Shown one piece after another: positions 7,987-24,925 of a stretch of 64,000 bases of DNA. Under the pieces are notes generated by a model that saw nothing but the letters and a program-made list of their open reading frames with translations, had not been told where the DNA came from and ran no database searches. Where the stretch lies: assembly GCA_021432655.1 (NCBI GenBank), contig MU271180.1, positions 81,445 to 145,444 of the forward strand, read 5' to 3'. This DNA comes from Atractiella rhizophila (lineage: Eukaryota). The position numbers were made by a program, and so were the translations under genes. Positions within the stretch are counted from its first letter, which is position 1. Each line of letters begins with the position of its first letter.

Positions 7987-8161
7987 CCGGAAGTCTCTCT
8001 AATAGTGTATTCTTTTCCAGCCTCGTTGCAGATGGGTCATATAAGTGCCGTTCGATTATCGAGTTTAGTTAGAAGGGGTCAGTAATTGATCTGCAGCGTG
8101 ATGTTGTATATCTTGCATTACATACATTACTGTTTACAGACTTATGCACATTTCTCAGTTT

Positions 8162-9428
8162 CTATGAAAAGTAACCTTGCTGAACTGCAATTTCGGCCTA
8201 GCGTGTTTGCTCAGCCGCATGATCTGTGAGAAAATTGAAGCAAAGCTTACGTTGATGATTGAGCTTGTTGCCGCACCAATGGCTACATTGTTGGCGAGCA
8301 CCACAAACTTGATGTCAAAGACATTACACCTCCTAATTCTGCCGACGCTGACACCTGCTCCTCGCTGGAAATTTCTGTCTAACCTAGGTTGAGGGCGATC
8401 AGGTTCGTCTTCTCCATGCACAAAAATCGCTTGCTCCGGAAGCGATGGTGGCCTACTCTTCGTGCGGTGAGCCGGAGAAGACCATTTTCCCAATGCCGTG
8501 CCAACTTGTTCAGGAGATGGAGGCGGTCGTCTTAAAAACTCGACAGATACACAAAGAGTGTGCCCTTCAAGCACAGGCACCCGATTGCATGATGCAGAAA
8601 CACGTATTTCGGGGGAATCGCCATCCCCACGCAGGAGAGTTGAGCCTTGAGATGAGAGGGAACCCAGTATCTTCCGAGTCTCCCATTCCATCTTTTCCTC
8701 CTCACCTTCGATGTAAGGTACAACGTTATCGTGTATATCCAAGCTGGGAACTCCAGGATAACCTGCCCCGCTAATCGCCTGGAGAGTAGTAACTGCCACT
8801 CGAGATATCGGACCAAAGCTCTCTTCGAGGGCCGCAAGTGGAATAACAAGACCAGTCGTGGAACAGTTGGCATTGGTGAGAATACAGCCTTTCGAGAGTC
8901 CGAGAGCAGACTTTTGCGCGCGTAACAGTGAAAGATGTGAAGGATTAACGAGAGGCACCATCAGAGGAACTAGAGGATCCCGACGATAGTTCTTCGAGTT
9001 TGAAAAGACCATGATATTGCTGTCCCGAAATGATCCCTCTTGGGAGTCAGCAGATTAGTTTCGCAATCAATCATGGCACGAGACGACCTACCAATTTCCC
9101 CCGCTACGGAACTGTCTAAACCTGAAAAAACTAAGTCGCAACCTTTGAAGTTGTCAGGTGTGCATTCTACCAGCACAATTTTTTGCACGCTCTCTGGTAT
9201 GGCATCAGACTGTTTCCACTTGACCGCTGCCTTATATTGTTGATTTGCGGATCTTGGTGACGCTCCAAGAGTAGTCAAGCTGAAGAATGGGTGGTCCGCG
9301 AGGAGGAGTATGAATTTTTGACCTACAGTGCCTGTTCGTGCAGTTAGTTCAGGTCCCAGAGCGAGGTACGAAATGGCCCCACCTGTGGCCCCTAGAACCC
9401 CAACTGTGTATGTGCGACGCTCCATCAT
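8162..9428 (-). CDS. HOM2: Aspartate-semialdehyde dehydrogenase
   Basis: VGVLGATG|TVGQKFI, NANCSTTGL, LQAISGAGYPGV, CNRVPVLEGH, PQPRLDR. Confidence 0.95.
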
Positions 9429-10616
9429 AGTGGTGGTGTGGATGGAGAAAACAGCTGGATTGGACCTGACTCCGATCACATTTAGAGGGAATGTACAACC
9501 CCCTCAGGTTCGCACAATGAGTTAGCGAGGTGACATCTTAATACAAGTTTGAGATTGGAGTGTGGGATTGGAAGTTGCGATGAGTGTTATTGCCGTGCTA
9601 GCAATGACCTCTCATGTTCGAGCTTCCTATTTATGTAAAGGAATGAAATCCTTGTACTTGCAGCAATATTGTAACAATGTTCAGTGGCCAGGCATTGGCA
9701 TAAGCAAATCGCAGTCCTGATATTCGTTTGCCTTTCACGAATAAGAACTGTAAATTAACGCTAGGAATGACAACATAACCACTTCCCCTTGTTGTCGACC
9801 GTCATACTACTGGTTAAAAATTGTGGCGAGCAACAAGCTCCGCCTTTACGCGATGAGTATTTCGACTCCGGCTTTTTTTGCATTAAACTGTCAAGAAGAG
9901 GATGTAAACAGATAAACGTTTTATAGCTATTTCTTGGATTTTGCATAATTTTCCTATATAAGCTCTTTAAGTAGTTACCCACTGTCGAAGGACACAGGTA
10001 GACGAGCGTTGTCGTCGCATCGTCTACAGCCTTCCCTTTACTCCCGTTACTCAGCGAATGAAAAAAACAACAACAATAAATCAAACGGCTCCTTGTTGCC
10101 CCTTTCTGATTCTACGTTGAAAATATTAGATTCAGTCGCGAAGCCCTACTGCTGGATCACGCCTTCGGGACGACGAGGGCACTCCGACACTTCTAGTACA
10201 ATCAATCAATAGTCTTTTCACACAAAGCTTCTTCGCGAGCCATCTGCTTGCTCAAGTGATTAATAACCTTGAGTCTTCGAGAACCTAGATTTTTTGTTTG
10301 TTGTTTCTTCTCTACTAGCAGTTATCGATGCTTTCTATTCAGTATGCACCACATTCCTGGGTGAAATTTCTTGTCCGCTCCTCCCCCTGTCTAGCTTCGG
10401 TTTCTGTATGCATGTCAACCAACCCTTGGGGATTGTGCGAATTGGAGTTGATCCACACGATTGTCGAGCAAATATGTCCTTAGCAAGAGCAGGGGAATCG
10501 GATATTCTTTTCCTTCTACAGTTATACAACATAATAAGGAGAAATAGTATTTGTCTTTTACGCCGTTACTCGAATGCAACGTGGCAAGTGGAGGAGACGA
10601 GAGTAGGAGAGAGAGA

Positions 10617-13600
10617 TCAAGACTTAAGGATTACTCGTTTCCGTTTCTTGGAATTGTCCTGGAGTTTCTCCAACGCTTGCTCTTCTGTCAACATCCCACC
10701 CATCTCCTCAAAGAAGTCTACGGTCTTCGCAGCGAGGAGTTGGCGTTGCATGAATCGGAGAGCGGCTAGATTATGTCCTACACGTTCCCGTTCTCCAGAG
10801 ATCGCAGATTGGACATTATCACGGAGAGACAGCAACGTGGGACGCATGCTTCGAGCATTTGCGAGCTGGTTGTAATGAACGCGTAAAATAAACTGGGTTA
10901 TACGAGCTACGAGAGGGATGTCCCATTGCTGCACCAACATGAGAATGATAAATTTATCAGAAACAGGACCTACCCTTTTCGCCCAATAATTCAGATTATC
11001 GATCAGAATAATGACCTTGTCAAATGGGAGGGTCAAAAGAGCATCATAAAGACCACCTTGGTTGATGCTTCGCATAACGTTGAGTACATACTCTTCTGGT
11101 CCGCAATTGTCGAAAGACGCGAAAATCGGGTGTCTTGCTTCCCTGTGCTTACTCTCCCCCACATTCGTAGCAGCCTCCCAAGCATTTTGATCGCTCCTAT
11201 CCTTCGCAGCAACTTCAAGAGCTTCCATGATCCGTTCGCCAGCCGTCAACGTCTCAGCCGTCGCCTTTTGTACCTCGCCACTTTCGACCTCTGGTACAAC
11301 TTCATCATCATCCTGGAGAGAGGTCTGGAGACGAGAGCTGTCCCGTTGTTTCGCGGCGAGATCTGCGTTCGCATACAGCTTCTCCAGCTCCGTTTCCCGC
11401 TCTTCTTCAAGGAATAACTACAAAGCAACTTAGCATATGCCAGAACCGCGAAGCCGCGGCGTACCGGGTCATACAAACGCTCCCATACTCGTATACTCCT
11501 GTCCTGCGAAGCAGTGAGGACGAAATGGCCCTGTCGACTAACTGCGAGCGAAGTGACGTCCCCATTGTGCCCATGGAGAGTCTGGATATTTTCAAACTGT
11601 GCACACTAACTCATCAGATACTGAGATTGGGATTGCAGTTCGGCAGACCTTGTCGCCGTCCCACTGTTTTAACAATTTGTCCCGTCCCACACTCCAAAAC
11701 AAATGGGAATTTGTTTCAAATCTAACACAGTTAATGACATCGTCATGTGCGAAGAGGGAACGATGACAATCCCCAAAGTCGAGACCCCATATCTTGATGT
11801 TCTTGTCACTTGAGCATGAGATCAACAGTTTTGAATCGAAAGAAATATCCATGGCGAGAACGGGTAGCTGATATGTAGGAGTCAGCAAAGCGACGGGTGA
11901 CTTGGAATTGAAGCCACCTTATGCCCGTAAAGTGAAAGGAAAAACTTCATGGTATCCATGAAGAAAATCTTAATTGTGGAATCGAGGAGGGAAACAGCGA
12001 ACAATCGCCCATCGGGTGAAAGCTTGATACTGAGGATTTCATCTTGCATCTTCATCGTCCTGGTATGATTTATGACCAAACCCCCGTTCTACGTCGAGAA
12101 GTGATTAACATCCCATACGCTCAAATCAGGTGTTACATCTGATGACACAGGAAGGACAAAAGCGAACCTCATCCTTGCCAAACTCCCAAAATCGCACCTC
12201 GCCATCCTTCCCGCCCGTGACAAAACCGCGTCCATCCGGCCGCATGTCGACTCCCCAGATCGCACCTTTATGAGCTTCTTCTACGCGGTGAACCAACAAA
12301 GAGTTTCGAATGTCATATAGTTCCAGTGAACCCGTCTTTGTACCCACCAAGAACTATGGTCATGTGCTTGTCAGTCTCAATTGAAGAACTGGCAAGAGTG
12401 AGGAACAAACGTGTCCATCTCCTTTGCACCAGGCGCCAACTATGCCTTGGCCCGCTTCTATAGTTCGAATCGATCTGGTCGTCTTAATATTCCACACTTT
12501 CAGCGATCCCTGACTGACGGAAGCTAACATCTCGTCGTCACTGGAAACTGCAAGGCATTTCACATCTGTTCGATGTCCCGGCAGAGCGAGGGAGTAGAGG
12601 AGCGCGTCAGGAGATTCGCCATTCGGCAATTTAGGAGGGGGATAAGGAAGCGTATAGGTCTCGAGAGAGTTGGAGGCGAGCGACAGAAGGAGGTGTATGT
12701 GGCTCGTTGATCCTGACGATTCTGAAGAGAATGTGAATGACTTGATTTTCCCTCCGCCTGACGCTCTGACAGTAGTCCAAAGTGTTATGCGATCCGTCCA
12801 CATCACCTTTTCCTCCTCTTCATCCTCTTCCTCTTCAGCTTCTCCTCCTTTTCTCTTCTTCCCTGCCTTTTCCTTCTCTCTCTTCTTCCTTCTCTTTTTC
12901 TTCCGCATCACCTCCTCCTCCGTCCTCACTCTCCAAATCTCGACTGCTTTATCTCCAGCGGTCAAAACTCCCAGAATTGGGAACCGAGGATGACCCTCAA
13001 TCCTGCTTATTCTCGTATTGCTGGTACTGGGTAGCGACTGTAACAGATTGATCGCCTTCTTGAATTTTCCATCATCTGCCTGTGACAGGCCCGCCTCGAG
13101 GACGCCTCATCAACAGACCACAACATGCGTTCTCCCTCTATGCCACCGGAAAGAATGTATGTTGACCCGGAAACGGAGAATGGCGTGAAAGAGAGGAGTT
13201 CGGATCGATGAGAGATTGTTGTTTCAACACAGTGTTTAGTCGGCAGGTGATAAAGTTTGAGAAAGGTGTCGCGAGACGAAGATAGAAGGTGAGTCTGATC
13301 TTTTGAATCCAGGGGGAGAAAAGCTAGAGCAGTGATGAGCAGACGGTGGGAGTGTACCCTGGTGAATACCTCTTAGCACAAGTTAACAAGAAATGGTGCG
13401 AAAAAACCGACCTAAACATGCCAATCCCTTCCAGAGTGTCCCAAATCACGATCTCGCCCTCTCCGCCCCCAGAGGCGAGTCTCACCCCATCCGCATCCCA
13501 TGCCAGCGCACTGACAGCCTTGCCATGTCCATTGAGCGTCATTTTAACAGGTGGGTGCATCTCTCCTCCCACCTTCCATTCAAATATCCTGATACTCCCA

Positions 13601-13914: not shown

Positions 13915-14248
13915 TTCACCAGACCTGACTGATCTGGCCTCTCAACGCCTCGAGCAGGCTGCCGTAATTTTTTTTTGTGTACGTAATAACTGACGACCTT
14001 TGCTTCCCTCAACAACCGTGACGAGGCTGACCGGTAAGTTTTGTTCACGAAGGGTTGCAAGAGTCAAGCGTACGGGCTGCAGAGACGAGAACGGGGAGAG
14101 GGCAAGCCAGGGAGGTCGCAGGCTGGTCAGAGGAAAGCAGGTAACATAATCAGAGATCTTGAGTCCAACCTTAGTCACAGTGCAAAGCTTTCCATTTGCT
14201 GCCTTGCAAAGCATTCACGCATTCACCAGCATCTTTCCTGCAGAAGTC

Positions 14249-15053
14249 ATGTCAGAAGCTGAACCGGATTATGAGATGGAAGTTGTGGACGAGGTTGAAG
14301 GCATGGAGGCAGGACTTTCGACGACACCAAAATCGTTTGTCCTCTCCTCCTTCTCAGATCATAGCTAACTGTCCAAGAAGAAAGCCAGGAATTGTTTATC
14401 TTTCTCGCATCCCACCACACATGTCACCTTCAAAGCTCCGACATATTCTTTCTGCGTATGGCTCTATCGGACGAGTTTATCTCGCACAGAAGCAGTCTCC
14501 ATCCACTTCTAGCAAAGGCAAAAGCAAAACAAAGGCAAAGCATGCGGCACATATCTACGAAGAAGGATGGGTTGAGTTCACTTCTAAGAAGGTCGCAAAG
14601 TCCATCTGCGGCTTGTTGAATGGTCGGAACATAGGTCTCTCCTATATACATCCATTTATGAATTTGCTTATCTGGTTCGCGTCAGGTGGAAAAAAGTCTT
14701 CTCGCTTCCACGACGACATTTGGTCTCTCAAATATCTTCCGGGATTTAAATGGCCTATGCTGACATCTCAGATGGCGACAGAGAGAGCAGCACAGGCTGA
14801 TAAGCTGCGCTTACAGATCGAAAGCGGGAAGAGGGAGGAGACTCAATATCTAGAGCAAGTGGAAAAAGCTCGCGTCCAGAAACTCGCTCAGGAGAAGAAG
14901 GCGAAACGTAAAGGCACGGAGGAAGAAGCAGAGGAAAAAGACTATCCGAAGAGTGTGGCGGAGGTACCGAGCGTCAAACACAAGCACAAAAAATCCTCGA
15001 TCCGCGTAGGGAGAGAAGAATCCGACAAAACCCAGGTTCTCGATTTGCTATAG
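14249..15053 (+). CDS. ESF2: Pre-rRNA processing protein Esf2/ABT1 (RRM)
   Basis: KPGIVYLSRIPP, YEEGWVEF, GGKKSSRFHDDIWSLKYLPGFKW. Confidence 0.92.
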
Positions 15054-15480: not shown

Positions 15481-18400
15481 ATGACAGATGTCGCAGGGAT
15501 TGTCCTCAGTGTCGTGACTGCATGGAAGACATGCATTGAGGTTTTCGACATTGTTCAGTCAGGACGCAATTATGGCATGGAATACCAAATCCTCCGAGTT
15601 AAGTTAGAGGTGGAAAGAATTCGGCTTATCATGTGGGGGGAGAGCCTTGGGCTAGCGGATGTGGATTCACTGGGCTCTGGCACATCTAGAGCGGCCGCCG
15701 TACTCGCAAGGGACGACGTGCGCGAAACAGTTTTACGCCTACTCGGCTGCGTACAGCATGCGTTTGAGAGTACACATCGGTTTGAGGAGAGGTACGGCCT
15801 AAGGCTAGTGACAACATTACCTCCCGCGATCCAGGATTGGGAATCGCCACCGCAGTCGCAGGGAATACTTGACGGTGTCTTCAAACGTGCATACGAGATG
15901 CTTCGCAGATCTGCGAGACAGAGACAACAGGTGACTCCGCTAAGGAAGAAAGCTTTGTGGGCCGTTTATGACGGGAAGAAGTTCAGCTCCATGATTGCGG
16001 AGCTGAAAGGATTCAATGACAACCTCCAGACATTAGTCCCTGATGTCGGAACAAAGACAATTCAGAACATCCGCGAAGAAATTGGTCAGAGTGAAGACAT
16101 TGGCGCTTTGCAATCGCTTTATGAAGCGACTACGAACGCTCACGTAGATATCTCGGATACTGCTAGTACCAGACTGACGGCTCTCGGTGCAACGACGGAT
16201 GCATCAGCAGACGCGAGGACAGTCTCTGCAGCTTCCAAAATTGTTGGACGAGTCGCCAACAACGCAAACGCTGAAGACCTAGAAGAATCAGACAGGCTAA
16301 CCGAAGAAATGGAAGCTGTGGAGGATTTTGTATCAAGAAGGATGGCAGGAAGTGTGAGGCTATCGCTGATCGGGCCGTGGAGGGTCAGCGCGCGCGTCAC
16401 AGCACACGCATACTGGGTCGGAGATCAGACTTCAGACACATGGCGAGATTGGAACGACCAATACAAGGGCTATGTGAAGACGTCACATGCATCCTTGTAA
16501 GCTGAAACCCCTTGTCAACGTTATGCAAGCATCTCACCGATCATTGCCTAGAAACCTTTACCACCGTAAAAGATATATTACGCGTTCTCGCAATGAATCC
16601 AATACTGACGAGGACGAAATTCTTTTCGATGTCGAAAGCCACACGAAATATGAAAATATCAACCCTGGAACCGTGACAATCGATGGGTATGGCATGGAAT
16701 GTTGGGACTACGAGGAACATTTGGGAAAACCGCGCGAGAAGACCGTGTTCATCTCACATGCACAACTTCCTGCAGTATCGGCCAAGAAACTTCTTCGTCG
16801 AATTGACGAACTAAAACGCGGTGGGCAGAAATTTGGTTGGAACCCCGAACGGGACAAATCTGATTTGGAAGAGTTCTTCGGCAATATGGGGTGATATGCT
16901 CCCAGTTTGCGTTGAAGGCAGGCCTAACATTGTTGTAGCGTCGTGTACACTGCCGCTGCGTCGAACGACCCGACCCTGGCTATTATCGACTTTTACAGTC
17001 AACTAAACCGGGTCGACATTTTTGCTGACTTTACAGCAAAGTCTAGCATCGCGACCCTATGGACAGCACCGGACGGCATAGGCATGTGGAATGTGCTGTG
17101 GCAGATTATCTTAGCAAAGGAATTGTACAGGCGATATACGGCCAACATTTCTGATTCCAGCTTTAGCGGCTTCACACCTAGGATTTTGGCAGCGCTGATT
17201 GTCCAAGACCTCTGGTTCCGCAATGTCGACCTAGTTCTGCGAAATGCGGCGATACGAACGGATGAGCTCAAGGCAGCAGGGACCGACGAAGAACGAGCGA
17301 AGGCCGAAGGTTTCAAGAGTAAGGGAAACGAGGCCATGCAGCAGAAGAAGTTCAAGGTTGCCATCGAACTTTACACTGAAGCGCTGAAGATTGACCTGAG
17401 GAACCCTATTTATCGCTGCAACAGAGCGGCGGGTTCTATGGCCCTCGGGAGGTACGATGACGCTGGCGAAGACGCTTTTATTGCGACACAACTTGACCCA
17501 AAATATGCAAAAGCATGGTCTCGGCTAGGTGCCGTGGAGCTCAAACTTGGAAACGCAAAACGAGCCCAGGACGCGTACGAAACAGCCATTACGGTAGCTG
17601 GCAAAGAAGCCACAATCTTGATGAAACAGGGCCTTGCCGACGCTAAAGCCATGATCGATGGAGAGTTGAAGGCGATTGACGATGAGAAGGACAAGAAGAA
17701 GAGAGATAGGCTACTGAAAGATTATCTCGACAAAGATTGGGATACTGCAGGACGCATTGTCGAGGCACATAGTAGCTGTTGGGAAGTACAAGTCGACGGA
17801 CTCCTCCACTTTGCAGAGCGTATGAAATGGCCTTTTCTCAACGAGACGCGTGACCACGCTGAAACAGCTTATGAAAACCTCCTCTCCGGCACTACTCTCC
17901 CGATAGACCTCTATGATTGGCTATTCGGCCTCACACTTCCTGGAAAGTGGATGTCTTTCAAAATCATGAGCGCGCTCATTATGTGTACTCCCACGCTGTC
18001 AGAAAAGCTAGGGATCGCAGCTTACTACGAATGCGGCCTCTCTCTTCCGCAGAAGTCATACTGGAGAGTAAGGACAATCCTTGGCCGTGTTCTTGGTTGT
18101 CTTCCAGGAGTAATGTCTCTCTGTGGATGGATTGGACCGTGCCCACCTGTCGAGTTTGTCTCCGTAGGCAAGGAAGCGATCAAAAACGAGCCAAGGCATG
18201 TCCGTATCAAGGCCAGGCGCGTCGCCCCAATAGAATATAATGCAGATCAAGACGACAACACCGTTTACATTGGGTTAAACAATTCTGTCGAATCGATCAG
18301 CATGCGGCCTGACGATGATGTAGCCACATACATATCACAGATGAAAGATATCGACAATTGGATTGTCCCAGAGTCACCTGTTCGGGAAATCAGTACAGTT

Positions 18401-18889
18401 ACTTTACAGTCAATCAAGTTGAAGAAGTTCCCCGCGGATGTCAACATCGCAGCCAGAATAGCTAACAAGTCTATCAGCGAGAAAGAGGCAGAGGACAATA
18501 CGCAGTATCGTGCTAGCATCCTCTTCAAGATAGACAACAATGAGGATCCGGTGACGTACACCCTTTACACAAACCCCATATTTGTGACGCCGCCATCGTG
18601 CCATCCTGGTCCAAAGGGCTTTCATGAGGTGCATATCCGAGCACTGGAAAAGTATCGGAAGAATATCTGGACAGTAGACCAGCTGAAGAACTACAAGGCG
18701 GAGGATATGGATGAAGATGTTATGGTTATCAATGCGACAGGAAAGGGTGCTGAAATCTTGGCCAGAGCATGGTGCTCGGAGAGAGGCAAGAATGCAGTGA
18801 TCTGTCGCCAAGGTGGTGCTTGTTATGTTTGTGGCTTCAAAGCTGCTTCGAAGTCAGGTTTGGGGACTGGTGTTCTCATATGGGTCTAG
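15481..18889 (+). CDS. HeLo (prion-inhibition and propagation) domain + TPR-repeat protein, ~1101 aa, 2 introns (16497-16551, 16891-16938)
   Basis: N-terminal GIVLSVVTAWKTCIEVF...VKLEVERIRLIMWGESLGL and KALWAVYDGKKFSSMIAELKGFNDNL fit the HeLo pattern. AEGFKSKGNEAM...YTEALKID...YRCNRAA...DPKYAKAWSRLG are TPR repeats. Both introns join the ORFs in frame. Confidence 0.85.
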
Positions 18890-19440: not shown

Positions 19441-22400
19441 CTACCGTCGTGATCCTGTCCTTCTCGTTCGTGGCAAGGGCCGCACTGTTCTTGCATCACC
19501 ACTGGGCGACTCACCCGCCCCCATATTGAACATTGATCCAGGCGAATTGGCTGCCGGGCTAAGAGCTGCAGCAGGGGAAAACGCTCCCCCACCGGTGGCT
19601 CCGAATGTGAAGCTTGGGGAGGAAGCTGACGGAGGTTGGTTGAAAGGAGACGGCGCTGAAGGGGAAGGAGCCCCGAAGCTAAATCCAGAAGGCGGAGAGG
19701 TGACTGACCCGTTCGTTGGCGGCCCGCCAAATTTGAACGGCTGATTAGAAGAGGTGGGGTTTCCGAATGGACTCGTAGCGTTGGGAGAGGCGACGAACGC
19801 GGATGAATTGTGAGCTGGCTGGTTCTGCGTGCCGAAAGGGGAGGACGCGTTGACGGGTTGAGAACCACCAAAGGGCGACGGATTACTTGCTGGCTTGGAC
19901 GCGTTCCCACCAAAGTTGAAGGAGAACGGTGAAGTCGGAGCTGGCGGGGCAGGAGAAGGATTGTTGTTACCCCCAAAAGTGAAGGGTGAAGTAGGAGCTG
20001 CACCACCGAAAGGAGCAGGCGAAAGAGTCGGATCTTTTCTGTCTTGCCCAAAGCTGAAAGGTTTTGGAGCTGCAGAGAAAGGTTGAGACGTTGTTGATGT
20101 GACCGCAGCACCGAAGCTGAAACCAGAGGATGCTGGCTGTGCTTTTCCAGCAAATGAAAAGCCGGGTCCATTGGCAACCGTCTGGGCAGCAGTGAGCAGA
20201 GGATTCGAGACTGCGAACATGGAAGGTGTTTTGACTGGCTCTGCAGGTGGAGTTTCGATGTCCTCCATCCCGACCGACTTATCGTTACTCTCACTTCCAT
20301 TTCCGTTCGTTCCGCTCACGCCAAACGAAAAGGGGGACGCAGTCGCTGTACTCGTAGCCTTGGGGCCACCAAAGGTGAATGCGCTGTTGTTGTTGGACTT
20401 TACGGAGGTGACCGCAGATCCATTACCAAAACCTGTTCCAAATGGACTCTTCGTAGAGGTATTTGCAGTACCAAACGTCATTGGAGCCGCGGTAATGTTC
20501 GTCGCAGGAGCGTCTGATGATGGTGTGCTATTGCTCCCGAAAGTGAATGGACTGGAGGAAGAAGAAGCCGCTCCGAACGGTTGTTCCTTTTTCTCCGCCG
20601 TTCCAAATGAGAAGGGCGGCTTGGAAGTCTCGCTACTTTGTGTTCCGAAGGCGAAGGGGCTGCCGGTATTTGCTGTCCCAGACGTTGAAGCTGGCGCGCC
20701 GAAAGAGAAACCGGGCTTTGACGACTCCGCTGGTTTCGGTTGATCGCCAAATGGGGCTGCAGCTTGGGGAGCATTCTTTTCCTCAACCTTGGCGCCAAAG
20801 GCAAATGCCGTTGGCTTTGGGGCAGACGTAACGGCAGTCTTATCGTCAGGTTTTGGGTCAAAGCCAAAGGAAATTTTCGGTGTCTCCTGCACTGTGGGTT
20901 TCGCGCCAAACGAAAAGGCTGGAGTGCTGGTCGAGTTGGTCGGTCTGGTTCTGCCCCAAATTGAAAGGGAGAACTTTTCGCTGTTGTGGTTGTCCCTTTC
21001 TCTTCGGCTGGGTTGGTAAAGGAGAAAGCTGGTTTTTCCGTATCTTTGACCGGCTGAACAAGAGGATTGTCCATCAGACGATTTGCAATGAAATAGAGGG
21101 AGCATACCTTTTCGGTGGCGGTAGGCAGGGAACCGAACACAAACGGTTTTGTTGGACTGTTCTGCGGCGTCGTGCTCTCTTCCTGCACTTTCTCCATCAC
21201 AGGAACGGCACCAAACACATTGTTGGAAGGCGGCTTGACAATCGGGGTTGTCAAAGGAGTGGTGCTCTCCCCTTTCTCTCCTCCTTTCTTCGGTGTCGCG
21301 TCCAAACCAAAACTGAATCCCTCGGGCACCTTGATCTCTGGCATCTTGACGCTGCTCAAAACGCTGTCGTCGACCTTCCATTCCTCCTCCTCTTGTTCCT
21401 TTTCCCGCTCCTTCTCCGCGAGCGCTCTCTTACTCTTCGGCGCAGATACGTGCATCCCTGAGCGATGCGTACGAGAGGGACGGAAGCTGGAAGTGGAGGC
21501 GGAGAGGGGGATGCGGCCAGAAGGAGTTGTGGCCAAAGGAGCAGGGCGAAGGATGAATGCTGGCGGGGGTTCCTCGATGGGTCGAGGAGGAGCGGGTGCT
21601 GCACGTGGAGGGGAAGGAGGGGGTGGCAACGGCGCCACAAAATCTTTCTCCTTTATTGTCGTTGTCGTCGTTGGTTGGACCGTAACTGGGGTGGCCGTGT
21701 CTTCTCCAGTCTTCCTCTTCTTCTGAGGGCTTTTATCCTTGCCCGTTCTCTTGGTCTCAAAGCCGAACCCCTCCTTCACAGGCATCAATCCTCCCTCACT
21801 CCCCTCACTCCCTTCACTCTCGCTCCTGTCTCTCCTCCTCTTCTTCTTCTTCTCCTTCTCCTTGCCCTGCTTTTCTTCCTCCTGTCCTTTCGGCCCTCCC
21901 GTTCGATCTCATAAACGACATCGTCATCCTCGTCCATTTCCATTTCCACCTCCCTGATCCTCCGCTCACTGGCACGCTTCCGGCGCCTCTCTTTTTCGAT
22001 TCTTGTCGACAGAGAAAGCGACGCATTACCGTTCGATACTGCCGGAGCAGAGGCATGAGATGTACGTCGACGGGCCCATGGGGATATTGAGCGGGAGTGA
22101 GGAGCGGAGTCGACGGTCAGGAGGGATTGCGACTCATCAAGGACGGGGACTAATCGACTTGATGGGAATGGCTGATTTGACCTTGAGATGGAACAAAACG
22201 GAACAAAGCAACAAGGAGAAAGGATGCGAACCTTACGCGTCACCGATAAGGGTGTTCTTATGCCTTCTAGCCTCCTCAGGATCCGTTCAGCTTCGTTGAC
22301 ATTTCCTGCCTCTCTCTCCTTTTCCCATCCATGTGATTACTATGCAGTCGAACAAGGGAGAGCAAATGCGTACCTTGACCTTCATCTCTTCTCTGCGCTC

Positions 22401-23156: not shown

Positions 23157-24925
23157 ATGCCTCGCGAGATACTTACCATCAGCGCCGGTCAGGCTGGGAA
23201 CCAGAGTAGGTCTTTATGTTTCTGAAAGATCGGCTGAAATGATGGTGCAACAGTTGGCAGCGAATTCTGGCGACAGCTCTGTCTGGAGCATGGCATTTCA
23301 CCAAGTGGTACACTAGAGGATCTTCCAGCCGATGTCTCAGCGGGAAGTGGGAGCAGTTTGGCACAAGGAGATCGAAAAGACGTCTTCTTTTACCAAGCGG
23401 ACGATGATCACTACGTTCCACGCTCCATTCTAGTGGACCTTGAACCAAGGGTGCGCTGTTGCTTCTCTCAACTCCACCTGGGTATGATGTTGAAGACCGC
23501 TGGCGTGAAGGTCATAAATGCTATCTTATCTAGTCCTTACCGCTCTCTATATAATCCTGAAAACATATACTTGAGCAAAGACGGCGGAGGCGCTGGAAAC
23601 AACTGGGCAGCGGGGTACGTTGCTCTTCTCTTGCCCACATGTTTCTAAAGGGACGCGCAGATATTCAGCAGCTGAAAAGATTTATGAAGAGGTGATGGAG
23701 ATGATTGATCGTGAAGCGGATGGGTCGGATTCTCTTGAGGTAGGACACTCACCCTGCTTCAAACCCTCAAGTCAAATTGATGATATAGGGATTCATGCTG
23801 CTCCATTCCATCGCAGGAGGCACTGGTTCTGGTCTTGGCTCTCATATCCTTGAACGACTGTCAGATCGATACCCCAAGAAGCTGATTCAGACCTATTCCA
23901 TTTTCCCTAATAATCTCGAAGGTATGTAGTACTCCTTCACATCAGTGTGATGTTGCTGATGCCCAGGCTGCAGGAAACAGTGACGTGGTCGTCCAGCCTT
24001 ACAACTCGCTCCTTACTCTTCGCCGTCTCACCGAACACGCCGATTCCGTCGTGGTTCTTGACAACGCTGCGCTAGCACGAATCGCTTCTGATCGTCTGAA
24101 GGTGGAGGAACAAACATTCAAACAGACCAACCAGCTTGTTCGCTCTCTCTTTCCTGTCTCCAAACCAAGCAGGAATGACGATGGAGCGGTGTAGGTCTCA
24201 ACTGTTATGTCGGCCTCGACGAATCCTCTCCGTTTCCCAGGGTACATGAACAACGATCTTGTAGGCATGGTCGCCTCCCTCATCCCTACGCCTCGATGTC
24301 ACTTCCTCATGACTGCATACACACCTTTTACTTCTGATTCACTCGACAAAGCCAAGAGCACACGGAAGACGACTGTTCTTGATGTGATGCGCCGTCTCCT
24401 CCAACCTAAGAATCGCATGGTTTCTACTCCGCCTACAAGCAGCAAGACCAGCTGTTACATCAGTATCCTCGATATCATACAGGGGGACGTAGATCCAACA
24501 GACGTGCGTTCCCATCCTATCCCACGTTTGACGCGAACCGGAGCTGACGAGCGCCGTGTTGACAGGTGCACAAATCTCTCCTACGAATTCGAGAGCGCTC
24601 TCTCGCCAATTTCATCCCCTGGGGTCCCGCATCTATCCAAGTTGCACTGTCCAAGCGCTCCCCTTACATCCAAACCGGCAACCGCGTCTCTGGCCTCATG
24701 TTAGCGAACCACACGAGCATTTCTTCCCTCTTCAAGCGCGTGTTGGATCAGTATACGCAATTGAGGAAGAGAAACGCCTTTTTGGAGGCGTACAAGAGGG
24801 AACCCATCTTTGGAAGCGATTTGGGCGAATTTGATCAGTCGAAGAACGTGGTACAGGACTTGTTGGATGAGTATATGGCCTGTGAGAGGGCGGATTATAT
24901 CGACTATGGAGCTGGAGATGATTAA
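23157..24925 (+). CDS. TUB4: Gamma-tubulin
   Basis: [77 protein letters not shown]. Confidence 0.96.

Follow-up and report, generated by a model that had tools for sequence, protein, structure and literature searches.

A conserved fungal HeLo protein family without a detectable NTPase domain, represented by a gene of Atractiella rhizophila

Introduction

In the accessible accounts of PMC3321046, PMC10197012 and PMC12881547, HeLo and four-helix-bundle (4HB) executioner domains come under three kinds of control: templating of amyloids by NLRs, direct fusion to a NOD, and a (pseudo)kinase. All-in-one fungal NLRs with the layouts HeLo-NACHT-WD and HeLo-NB-ARC-TPR exemplify the fusion (PMC3321046). 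A HeLo protein with a reported biological phenotype is LopB of Leptosphaeria maculans, which carries a HET-s/LopB domain and whose similarity to HET-s is confined to the N-terminal domain (PMC1325252).

We analysed a gene of Atractiella rhizophila in a 64,000-nucleotide stretch of DNA, referred to here as the window. An earlier note, made from the sequence alone, had described it as a fusion of a HeLo effector and a TPR sensor. Both domains are real, but they do not form a bare pair, since ~700 of the 1101 residues belong to two further conserved domains, which we call Mid and CTD. The family to which the protein belongs represents a fourth arrangement, in which the partners of a killer domain are two conserved domains without a recognised fold and, often, a putative reader of Hsp70/Hsp90 tails.

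Results

An intact gene of three exons that is transcribed and spliced

Three plus-strand open reading frames at positions 15481-18889 join into an intact fungal gene of three exons, with a coding sequence of 3306 nt that stays open over 1101 codons and has a single terminal stop codon (18887-18889, +); the earlier note had likewise seen an intact gene of ~1101 aa. Exon 1 (15481-16496, +), delimited by its open reading frame and start codon, encodes residues 1-338 and two bases of codon 339, covering the HeLo domain at residues 8-213 (reaching to ~232), then an acidic linker of variable sequence (~233-275), and lastly the first part of Mid. It is followed by intron 1 (16497-16551, +), which has 55 nt and GT..AG ends (GTAAGC...TAG). 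Exon 2 (16552-16890, +) encodes residues 339-452, split codons included, and forms the central part of Mid; its placement rests on frame continuity, on conservation among homologues and on many metagenome matches of the size of an exon (~100-130 aa). Intron 2 (16891-16938, +) is a predicted GT..AG intron of 48 nt (GTGATA...CTAAC...TAG), whose removal restores the frame and across whose junction the homologue alignment is free of gaps. Exon 3 (16939-18889, +) holds the end of Mid, the TPR cassette and CTD.

Intron 1 was confirmed by a spliced contig from an RNA library (metatranscriptome), 274 nt long, which joins position 16496 to 16552 and precisely skips the intron, with 54 nt on its shorter side. 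Another RNA-library contig extends past the stop codon to 18950, which gives a 3' UTR of at least 61 nt if this contig represents the transcript. The RNA contigs cover neither intron 2 nor most of exon 1, which is not evidence of absence. Transcript fragments were found in four RNA runs, none with a known death context. The gene is transcribed and spliced.

A complete HeLo domain

Residues 8-213 matched the Pfam HeLo family PF14479 with an E value of 1.6e-49 and a score of 168.9 bits (gathering cut-off 23.2), covering profile positions 6-205 of 205. Among PDB sequences, the HeLo chain of HET-S (2wvo) was found with an E value of 5.7e-19, residues 5-235 aligning to chain positions 9-222. The HeLo-type N-terminus that had been suggested from the letters was thus confirmed by both searches. 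The N-terminal 50 residues are among the best-conserved parts of the domain, with identities of 0.54-0.65 across 27 homologues compared to 0.26-0.28 in loops, and it is from the first 50 residues that the membrane helix of HET-S comes (PMC10197012, PMC12881547). Downstream, the acidic linker is variable, with an identity of 0.12 in the block 251-275. The stretch between HeLo and TPR, previously put at ~250 aa of unassigned sequence, is actually ~340 aa long and consists of this linker and a conserved folded domain.

The HeLo domain is homologous over its whole length to those of HET-S (Podospora anserina) and HELLP/HELLF, including the conserved N-terminal helix region. Unlike these proteins, the A. 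rhizophila protein has no C-terminal prion-forming/amyloid motif detected by Pfam at E <= 1 and no NLR gene found beside it, and compared to HET-S it continues for ~870 more residues (Mid, TPR and CTD) after the HeLo domain. It shares with LopB the status of a HeLo protein.

No NTPase, amyloid motif or neighbouring NLR detected

The translations of the three exons contained no Pfam match to NACHT or NB-ARC at E <= 1. Scans of 68 relatives (E <= 1e-4) and of 26 (E <= 0.01) detected neither family. A regular expression for Walker A ([AG]x4GK[STQ]) had 0 matches in the protein. Among 27 full-length homologues no Walker A motif occurs at a conserved position, and the 4 sporadic matches lie in 4 proteins at three places. 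No match to the HET-s_218-289 prion domain or an amyloid motif family was found in exon 1 at E <= 1, a check that used Pfam families rather than dedicated models of the PP and sigma motifs. Protein kinase families were likewise without a match in the exon translations (Pfam, E <= 1). The genes around the locus were surveyed through 13 open reading frames of at least 150 aa between 8 and 27 kb of the window, each taken as a single uninterrupted frame, and no adjoining NLR gene with a matching motif was seen among them. Their matches were solely to semialdehyde dehydrogenase, Utp12/WD40 and tubulin, the others having none; the neighbours are housekeeping genes.

These results uphold what the earlier note had said about the absence of Walker A and of a HET-s-like amyloid motif, and the NACHT/NB-ARC profile check that it proposed came back empty. 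Because neither an NTPase nor an amyloid motif is detectable, the activation of HeLo would have to bypass both the oligomerisation of an NLR and templating by an amyloid, which supports the earlier expectation of an activation route that does not pass through an oligomerising NTPase. The protein resembles all-in-one NLRs in having an N-terminal HeLo domain on a long multidomain chain with TPR repeats downstream. In contrast to them, it has no detectable NOD (no Pfam match, no Walker A, a helical middle domain), its TPR stops at three repeats of the clamp type where theirs form a long sensor array, and its C-terminal part is highly conserved instead of hypervariable.

An SGT-type TPR as a dispensable cassette

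The TPR cassette (17306-17623, +; residues ~575-680) was recognised by Pfam TPR_1 (E 1.9e-11) and TPR_2 (E 2.5e-10) at exon-3 residues 123-220, corresponding to ~575-672 of the full-length protein. Its best natural match among PDB sequences was Aspergillus fumigatus SGT (3sz7, E 1e-26), followed by Sgt2 (5lyn, 5.6e-22) and Hop (7kw7, 1.2e-18), with the TPR of PP5 also listed. Three TPR repeats and a capping helix are present and homologous to SGT/Hop, in agreement with the about three SGT/Hop-like repeats counted in the earlier note. The carboxylate-clamp positions, whose inspection had been advised, are all occupied: K578, N582, N613, K643 and R647 are identical to the residues of the aligned SGT 3sz7, and the five positions are retained in 25-26 of the 28 rows of the family alignment. 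In Hop TPR1 the corresponding clamp is K8/N12/N43/K73/R77. The clamp residues given for TPR2A and Tah1 in PMC2865030 have a spacing that the TPR of this protein matches. By these sequence comparisons the TPR qualifies as an SGT-type domain with a complete two-carboxylate clamp.

SGT, Sgt2 and SGTA (3sz7, 5lyn, 2vyi; E 1e-26 to 3e-16, with the full carboxylate clamp) are the closest proteins to this TPR. The alignment is nonetheless limited to the TPR (exon-3 residues ~114-244), which is flanked here by Mid and CTD, whereas the flanks of SGT itself, a dimerisation domain at the N-terminus and a Gln/Met-rich client-binding domain at the C-terminus, are missing. Protein phosphatase 5 is a TPR-autoinhibited enzyme that is opened by the Hsp90 tail. 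Like PP5, the protein couples a clamp TPR of three repeats to a functional domain on the same chain, and PP5 provides a precedent for tuning by chaperone tails; the domains outside the TPR are unrelated, however, and such regulation of the A. rhizophila protein is hypothetical.

In Collybia P0094, Calcarisporiella P0080, Bifiguratus P0109, and in P0185 and P0190, the TPR is cleanly missing (0 of 106 aligned positions) and the rest of the architecture is kept whole; the TPR is a dispensable cassette.

Two conserved domains outside Pfam

Mid (residues ~276-560, its end encoded at 16939-17262, +, residues ~453-560) is conserved and mostly helical. Its AlphaFold model, built on the region of P0009, a 55%-identical homologue, rather than on the sequence of the window, reached a pLDDT of 80.8 and contains 13 helices and one hairpin, which is not an alpha/beta arrangement. 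The boundary of Mid was drawn from conservation and from the model of this P0009 counterpart. CTD (17681-18886, +; residues ~700-1101), delimited by its AlphaFold model (pLDDT 91.3, pTM 0.87), conservation and profile matches, is the most conserved region of the protein, with blocks at 0.72-0.82 identity. Besides a helical subdomain and a beta-rich part, it has a closing beta-alpha-beta-alpha-beta unit, which bears the motif INATGxGxE..ARAWCxERG...C..C. C847, C853, C1006, H1014, H1017, C1064, C1080 and C1083 are conserved, and the domain carries invariant Cys/His residues and a Gly-rich strand-loop-helix. The Cys-rich C-terminal motif picked out in the earlier note is therefore genuine and nearly invariant across the family. 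The regions that the note had left unassigned still have no family assignment, but they turn out to be conserved folded domains with confident models.

Neither Mid nor CTD belongs to a Pfam family, and searches with their AlphaFold models gave no convincing fold match in the PDB. No NTPase appeared among the fold matches of Mid, but no strong match of any kind did either. Its sequence returned nothing but family members or exon-sized fragments (46 matches of 610-1943 aa and 37 of 30-609 aa), and the ESM Atlas held no usable match for it. The CTD profile reached an E value of just 0.83 at best against PDB sequences. On the strength of these sequence and model searches, we regard Mid and CTD as two new domain families lacking a Pfam model or a structural relative. 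Clusters in the ESM Atlas that pointed to zf-MYND for CTD (0.81-0.82, with recognition under the trust mark) were treated as noise. We rejected a YraN match at CTD positions 343-394 (NCBIfam, E 0.036) because it falls far short of the cut-off and because the strands predicted to follow the helix come in an order unsuited to a PD-(D/E)xK core. A Pico_P2A match in Pfam (E 0.14) was ignored, and PADLOC families had no match. A complex prediction of HeLo against Mid and CTD (P0009 residues 1-232; 274-573; 709-1110), with alignments unused, scored 0.00 and gave no answer, and is neutral as to intramolecular docking.

In concept, the protein may resemble MLKL and the fungal HELL-kinase, where a four-helix-bundle killer is checked by a covalently attached regulatory domain that is not an NTPase (PMC12881547). 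In contrast to these proteins, its putative regulatory part is no kinase or pseudokinase, Mid and CTD being without a known fold match.

A widespread and modular family

The architecture HeLo, variable acidic linker, Mid, optional TPR cassette and CTD is shared by at least 27 full-length homologues from Ascomycota and Basidiomycota, with 27 of 27 matches of at least 1000 aa showing it; one homologue, P0023, comes from a relative of Podospora, and TPR-less forms are present in Mucoromycota. The C-terminal 400 aa had 197 matches, and the CTD profile reached 577 representative clusters. The family is widespread, its range taking in both Dikarya and Mucoromycota, and a chytrid form is related to it. 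The family core is HeLo-Mid-CTD, which is retained where the TPR is absent. Mid-TPR-CTD also persists without HeLo, in forms that may be truncated gene models. In one single-ORF relative with the layout TPR-CTD-HET, a second death-associated effector, HET, takes the place of HeLo. CTD also stands alone, 47 of 68 scanned proteins having no other Pfam domain, which indicates a role of CTD that is independent of any effector. A quick gene tree was patchy and discordant, with tandem duplicates.

Discussion

We propose, with a probability of roughly 0.45, that the gene belongs to a conserved non-NLR HeLo family of fungi, so far uncharacterised, and that its product is a soluble, auto-inhibited executioner under the control of Mid and CTD, with the TPR as a handle. 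Invariant throughout the family, the Mid-CTD core is conserved more strongly than HeLo, and Mid and CTD are better candidates for the regulatory core than the TPR. As a regulated membrane-permeabilising protein, it would be restrained by the Mid-CTD core until a signal arrives, presumably a conserved endogenous cue; judging by the invariant Cys/His residues and the Gly-rich strand-loop-helix, this cue may be a metal, a redox change or a small ligand. Such a signal might bring about a conformational change or self-association, and the freed N-terminal HeLo helix could then insert into membranes, by analogy with HET-S and MLKL. Where present, the TPR would most likely dock the EEVD tails of cytosolic Hsp70/Hsp90, as its clamp residues suggest. 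By analogy with Hsp90 acting on PP5 and NLRs, it may be a co-chaperone handle built into the protein, there to stabilise or tune a metastable state, and not the trigger.

Other readings of the locus differ in how much of the evidence they accommodate. That the gene is a pseudogene or a chimeric model is negligibly probable: two introns are required, and intron 2 has a less common donor (GTGATA) and no RNA cover, but the spliced frame is open for 1101 codons, 27 full-length homologues share the collinear architecture with gap-free junctions, and an RNA-library contig bears out intron 1. It is also very improbable that the protein is a cryptic NLR, with Mid or CTD as a diverged STAND/P-loop NTPase whose oligomerisation follows the exchange of nucleotide. 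A chaperone-guarding death switch, as the earlier note had imagined, would have the TPR read the EEVD tails of Hsp70/Hsp90, so that loss or titration of the chaperone releases the protein and fires HeLo. The SGT-type TPR, with all five clamp residues kept in nearly all rows, and the lack of both a detectable NOD and an amyloid route speak for this switch. The proteins P0094, P0080, P0109, P0185 and P0190, however, have an intact HeLo-Mid-CTD at 0 of 106 TPR positions, and since the TPR is missing from such lineages the basic control of the family cannot depend on it. Chaperone guarding as the primary trigger is thereby weakened, and we consider it distinctly unlikely.

Possible, though doubtful, is a non-lethal housekeeping protein that plays no part in cell death and serves, for instance, the quality control of membranes or proteins, in which CTD is an enzyme or a binder of small molecules or metal, HeLo a regulated membrane anchor and the TPR a chaperone dock. 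The conservation of CTD, highest in the protein, its invariant Cys/His and Gly-rich strand-loop-helix, the many proteins with CTD alone, the housekeeping genes next door and the transcript fragments in four runs of no known death context all fit such a role. The strong conservation of CTD and the housekeeping character of the neighbours also count against the auto-inhibited executioner, for they suit a non-lethal function in the cell no less than a death switch. On the other hand, all HeLo/HELL domains that have been characterised have their role, according to the available text of PMC10197012 and PMC12881547, in cell death and the permeabilisation of membranes. CTD is also fused to HET, another death-associated domain, and the patchy, discordant gene tree with tandem duplicates is unlike that of a core housekeeping gene.

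Returning to the auto-inhibited executioner, the family offers a tractable single-gene system for how HeLo stays silent and is then released without an NTPase, and may show control of killer domains without an NLR. A broader version, which we rate as rather unlikely, would make Mid-CTD a nucleotide-independent sensor/assembly module of fungal regulated cell death that substitutes for a NOD, works with varied killers (HeLo, HET) and an optional TPR, and is cued by metal, redox or metabolite through the Cys/His residues and the Gly-rich loop, not by variable non-self ligands. If true, this would be a third mode of HeLo/4HB control besides NLR amyloid templating and the MLKL-type (pseudo)kinase.

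We found no publication on the family or its architecture; the supplementary domain tables of PMC9815663 and PMC4986451, parts of those papers outside the search, might list it. The database names of family members either cover a part of the protein, as 'prion-inhibition and propagation' does, or mislead, as do 'SGT2' and 'small glutamine-rich TPR protein 2'; the last of these, given to some homologues, misleads because solely the TPR aligns to SGT.

Gene structure and expression

Three long open reading frames in different frames occupy positions 15481-18889 of the + strand and are separated by two introns with fungal-type signals in the DNA. Intron 1 (16497-16551, +, 55 nt) has the signals GTAAGC...TAG, and intron 2 (16891-16938, +, 48 nt; GTGATA...CTAAC...TAG) is predicted and without RNA cover. 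Splicing yields a coding sequence of 3306 nt, or 1101 codons with one, terminal stop. A 274-nt contig from the root metatranscriptome run X1 joins 16496 straight to 16552 with GT..AG ends. The intact gene of ~1101 amino acids described in the earlier note stands. Other RNA contigs with at least 99% identity, found in four runs, match stretches of each of the three exons and reach 61 nt beyond the stop. Both exon junctions are indel-free in an alignment with 27 full-length homologues (gap fractions: 0.00 for block 326-350, 0.12 for block 451-475). RNA contigs of different runs show single-base differences from the window at 16171, 16206, 16209, 17713, 18488 and other positions, the A>T at 17713 being seen in two runs; these are probably strain variation.

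Domain architecture of the predicted protein

The product, here called the window protein, consists of HeLo, an acidic linker, Mid (~276-560, mostly helical), TPR (~575-680) and CTD (~700-1101), Mid and CTD being working names for two conserved domains without Pfam family or fold assignment. The previously proposed "compact" receptor is upheld in part: HeLo, a clamp TPR and the lack of an NTPase stand, its compactness giving way to a four-domain architecture. Judged by sequence, the N-terminal domain is a clear HeLo family member, as had been suggested: Pfam HeLo matches exon 1 at amino acids 8-213 (E 1.6e-49; 168.9 bits against a cut-off of 23.2), and the alignment with the solved HET-S/HET-s HeLo domain extends along the entire domain (2wvo, E 5.7e-19; 2wvn, 5e-17). 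The best-conserved part of HeLo is the first 50 residues (identity 0.54-0.65), a segment that in HET-S makes up the membrane-attacking helix (PMC10197012, PMC12881547). The linker that follows (~233-275) is acidic and variable in length, with an identity of 0.12 in block 251-275.

Pfam TPR_1/TPR_2 matches cover exon-3 residues 123-220 (full-length ~575-672). The best natural PDB sequence matches of the TPR are SGT proteins (A. fumigatus SGT 3sz7, 1e-26; yeast Sgt2 5lyn, 5.6e-22; human SGTA 2vyi, 2.9e-16), followed by RPAP3, Hop, PP5 and Tom70, in agreement with the SGT/Hop-like repeats noticed earlier. The carboxylate-clamp check found all five residues present: K578, N582, N613, K643 and R647 align to identical SGT residues in the 3sz7 alignment, are spaced by 4, 31, 30 and 4 as in a two-carboxylate clamp for an EEVD-COOH tail, and are conserved in 25-26 of the 28 family members aligned. 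In Hop TPR1 the clamp is numbered K8/N12/N43/K73/R77. Clamp residues listed in PMC2865030 are K229/N233/N264/K301/R305 for Hop TPR2A and K8/N12/N43/R77 for Tah1. From these residues the domain reads as a clear clamp-type TPR that very probably binds Hsp70/Hsp90-type C-terminal tails. The window protein is not an SGT, however, because the flanking domains present in SGT are absent from it.

No NACHT, NB-ARC, AAA, kinase or HET-s prion-domain family matched the three exon translations in Pfam at E <= 1, nor 68 relatives at E <= 1e-4 or 26 relatives at E <= 0.01. A Walker A regular expression gave 0 matches in the window protein and four among 27 homologues, scattered and not aligned. The lack of an NTPase domain and of a HET-s-like amyloid motif, both read earlier from the sequence, was borne out in these searches. 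A 2025 review places HeLo on amyloid-controlled effectors and NLR N-termini, and HELL on kinase or pseudokinase proteins (PMC12881547); the window protein lacks the features that define amyloid-controlled effectors, NLRs and MLKL-like proteins. We found no description of a HeLo-Mid-TPR-CTD protein in the literature, including the available text of PMC3321046, PMC12881547, PMC9815663, PMC10197012, PMC3689799, PMC1325252 and PMC2865030, a mention in a domain table being possible, and family members are already in public databases under automatic names. What is new is the putative regulatory module of a candidate HeLo executioner, made of two domains without assignment, Mid and CTD.

The CTD

Both regions without an assigned family are real conserved domains. 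The CTD sequence of the window protein itself, folded with an alignment of 121 rows, gave a confident model (pLDDT 91.3, pTM 0.87), whose parts are a helical subdomain, a middle rich in beta structure and, at the end, a beta-alpha-beta-alpha-beta unit. This last unit holds the family's most conserved block, I-N-A-T-G-x-G-x-E..A-R-A-W-C-x-E-R-G...G-P-C-x-x-C-A, within which lies the Cys-rich ARAWC motif pointed out earlier. C853, C1006, H1014, H1017, C1064, C1080 and C1083 are invariant or near-invariant. The suggested AlphaFold and Foldseek check thus yielded a model and no fold match at E <= 0.001 (best 0.25; CTD searched as one piece); the CTD also has no Pfam family and no PDB sequence relative, profile search included (E 0.83). 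These negative fold searches are no proof of novelty. Weak leads to YraN (E 0.036) and to zf-MYND-like features (0.82) were set aside.

Family range and phylogeny

With the C-terminal 400 amino acids as query, 197 proteins matched at E <= 0.001; lengths and precomputed domains are given for the best 120 of the 197. Among these, 27 matches have at least 1000 amino acids; HeLo is precomputed in 27/27 and TPR families in 26/27, the sole exception (P0079; P numbers are handles for family proteins) listing HeLo only. Taxonomically the 27 span Sordariomycetes (Podospora, Cercophora, Chaetomium, Sporothrix), Dothideomycetes (Bipolaris, Westerdykella), Eurotiomycetes (Aspergillus terreus), Leotiomycetes, a lichen fungus and Agaricomycetes (Amanita, Mycena, Psilocybe, Serendipita). 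The Mucoromycota members Calcarisporiella and Bifiguratus are shorter, at 954-979 amino acids, and lack the TPR. Full-length homologues are 40-55% identical to the window protein over its full length, and its best match is 66% identical over the CTD, so the exact protein is absent from the collection searched.

A CTD-only profile built from 12 rows matched 577 representative clusters at E <= 0.001; stricter limits of <= 1e-10 and <= 1e-30 left 410 and 179 of them. Sixty-eight of the 577, picked for differing length or domain position, were scanned with Pfam: 47 had no Pfam family (mostly 380-620 amino acids, CTD at the C-terminus), 13 had TPR only (including the chytrid P0197, TPR N-terminal), 6 had HeLo only, 1 had HeLo and TPR, and 1 combined TPR, CTD and HET. 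The last, P0148, is encoded by one 1364-aa ORF on a metagenome contig of 6.7 kb (TPR 134-185, CTD 190-639, HET 889-1045); HET is thereby a second death-associated effector joined to the CTD module.

In a domain-by-domain alignment the TPR is missing outright (0/106 positions) from P0094, P0080, P0109, P0185 and P0190, which retain the other three domains, HeLo, Mid and CTD; the TPR is a clean cassette in this family. Conversely, in gene models as deposited, HeLo is absent and Mid, TPR and CTD are kept in P0095, P0096, P0098, P0101, P0107, P0110 and P0114 from Aspergillus and P0134 and P0135 from Fusarium (814-870 amino acids; the Aspergillus forms, from seven species, 827-870). Since some lineages lack the TPR and others HeLo, the invariant core is Mid-CTD, to which HeLo and TPR are accessory. 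In the same alignment, two clamp positions are apparently substituted in P0095.

A maximum-likelihood gene tree from a quick search, with 40 rows (39 selected named proteins and the window protein, which has no resolved place), departs from the species tree of fungi: Leucoagaricus falls inside an ascomycete clade, Mucoromycota inside a basidiomycete one, and the partner of Amanita is a lichen fungus. The conflict could come from old paralogy and loss, horizontal transfer or contamination. Adjacent paralogues with neighbouring locus tags (P0097/P0103 and P0079/P0077) suggest tandem duplication in Serendipita, a root endophyte. One Serendipita copy lacks the TPR, and the longest contig reported is 105,480 bp for P0097 and P0103 alike.

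Proposed mechanism

From the observed architecture, homologies, conservation pattern and expression we infer, tentatively and with a probability of about 0.45, a regulated HeLo executioner under Mid-CTD control. By analogy with HET-S and MLKL, a HeLo domain whose N-terminal helix is constrained would carry out regulated membrane attack, and since amyloid motif, NOD and kinase are all absent, control would have to lie with the Mid-CTD core to which HeLo is covalently attached. Conservation of this core exceeds that of the effector, with CTD blocks reaching 0.72-0.82 identity across phyla, the reverse of NLRs, whose sensor domains are hypervariable; such conservation points away from recognition of variable non-self. 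It suggests a conserved endogenous cue, or else a site for catalysis or ligand binding (Cys/His cluster, Gly-rich loop). The flexible acidic linker suggests that HeLo is on a tether and docks in a reversible way.

An immune or cell-death role is fitted by the CTD-HET link in one relative and by the patchy, duplicated phylogeny. Stand-alone CTD proteins and the gene's place among housekeeping genes leave room for a non-lethal housekeeping or enzymatic role, which we consider less likely. The chaperone-guarding death switch of the earlier note, triggered through the clamp TPR, is weakened by relatives that have HeLo-Mid-CTD and no TPR, and we regard it as improbable; because the TPR is dispensable in whole lineages, it would rather be an accessory chaperone handle, stabilising or tuning a metastable protein, than the family's trigger. 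A cryptic NTPase seems very improbable, and an artefact carries almost no weight; the remainder of the odds was given to no reading.

Genomic neighbourhood

The neighbouring ORFs are recognisable as housekeeping genes (semialdehyde dehydrogenase, Utp12/WD40, FG-repeat ORF, tubulin), and the 13 ORFs scanned between 8 and 27 kb of the window include neither an NLR or HET gene nor another HeLo gene. Domain matches mark split ORFs for semialdehyde dehydrogenase (C- and N-terminal domains; 8155-9479, -), a Utp12/WDR3-type WD40 protein (10617-12965, -) and a tubulin C-terminal domain (24207-24704, +), which are ordinary housekeeping genes with introns. Directly downstream on the opposite strand, a 646-aa ORF (19441-21381, -) with no Pfam match at E <= 0.001 has many FG, FSFG and FGG repeats and looks like a nucleoporin. 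Just upstream, a 285-aa ORF (14196-15053, +), also without a Pfam match at E <= 0.001, has a tail rich in lysine and glutamate and could belong to a spliced gene.
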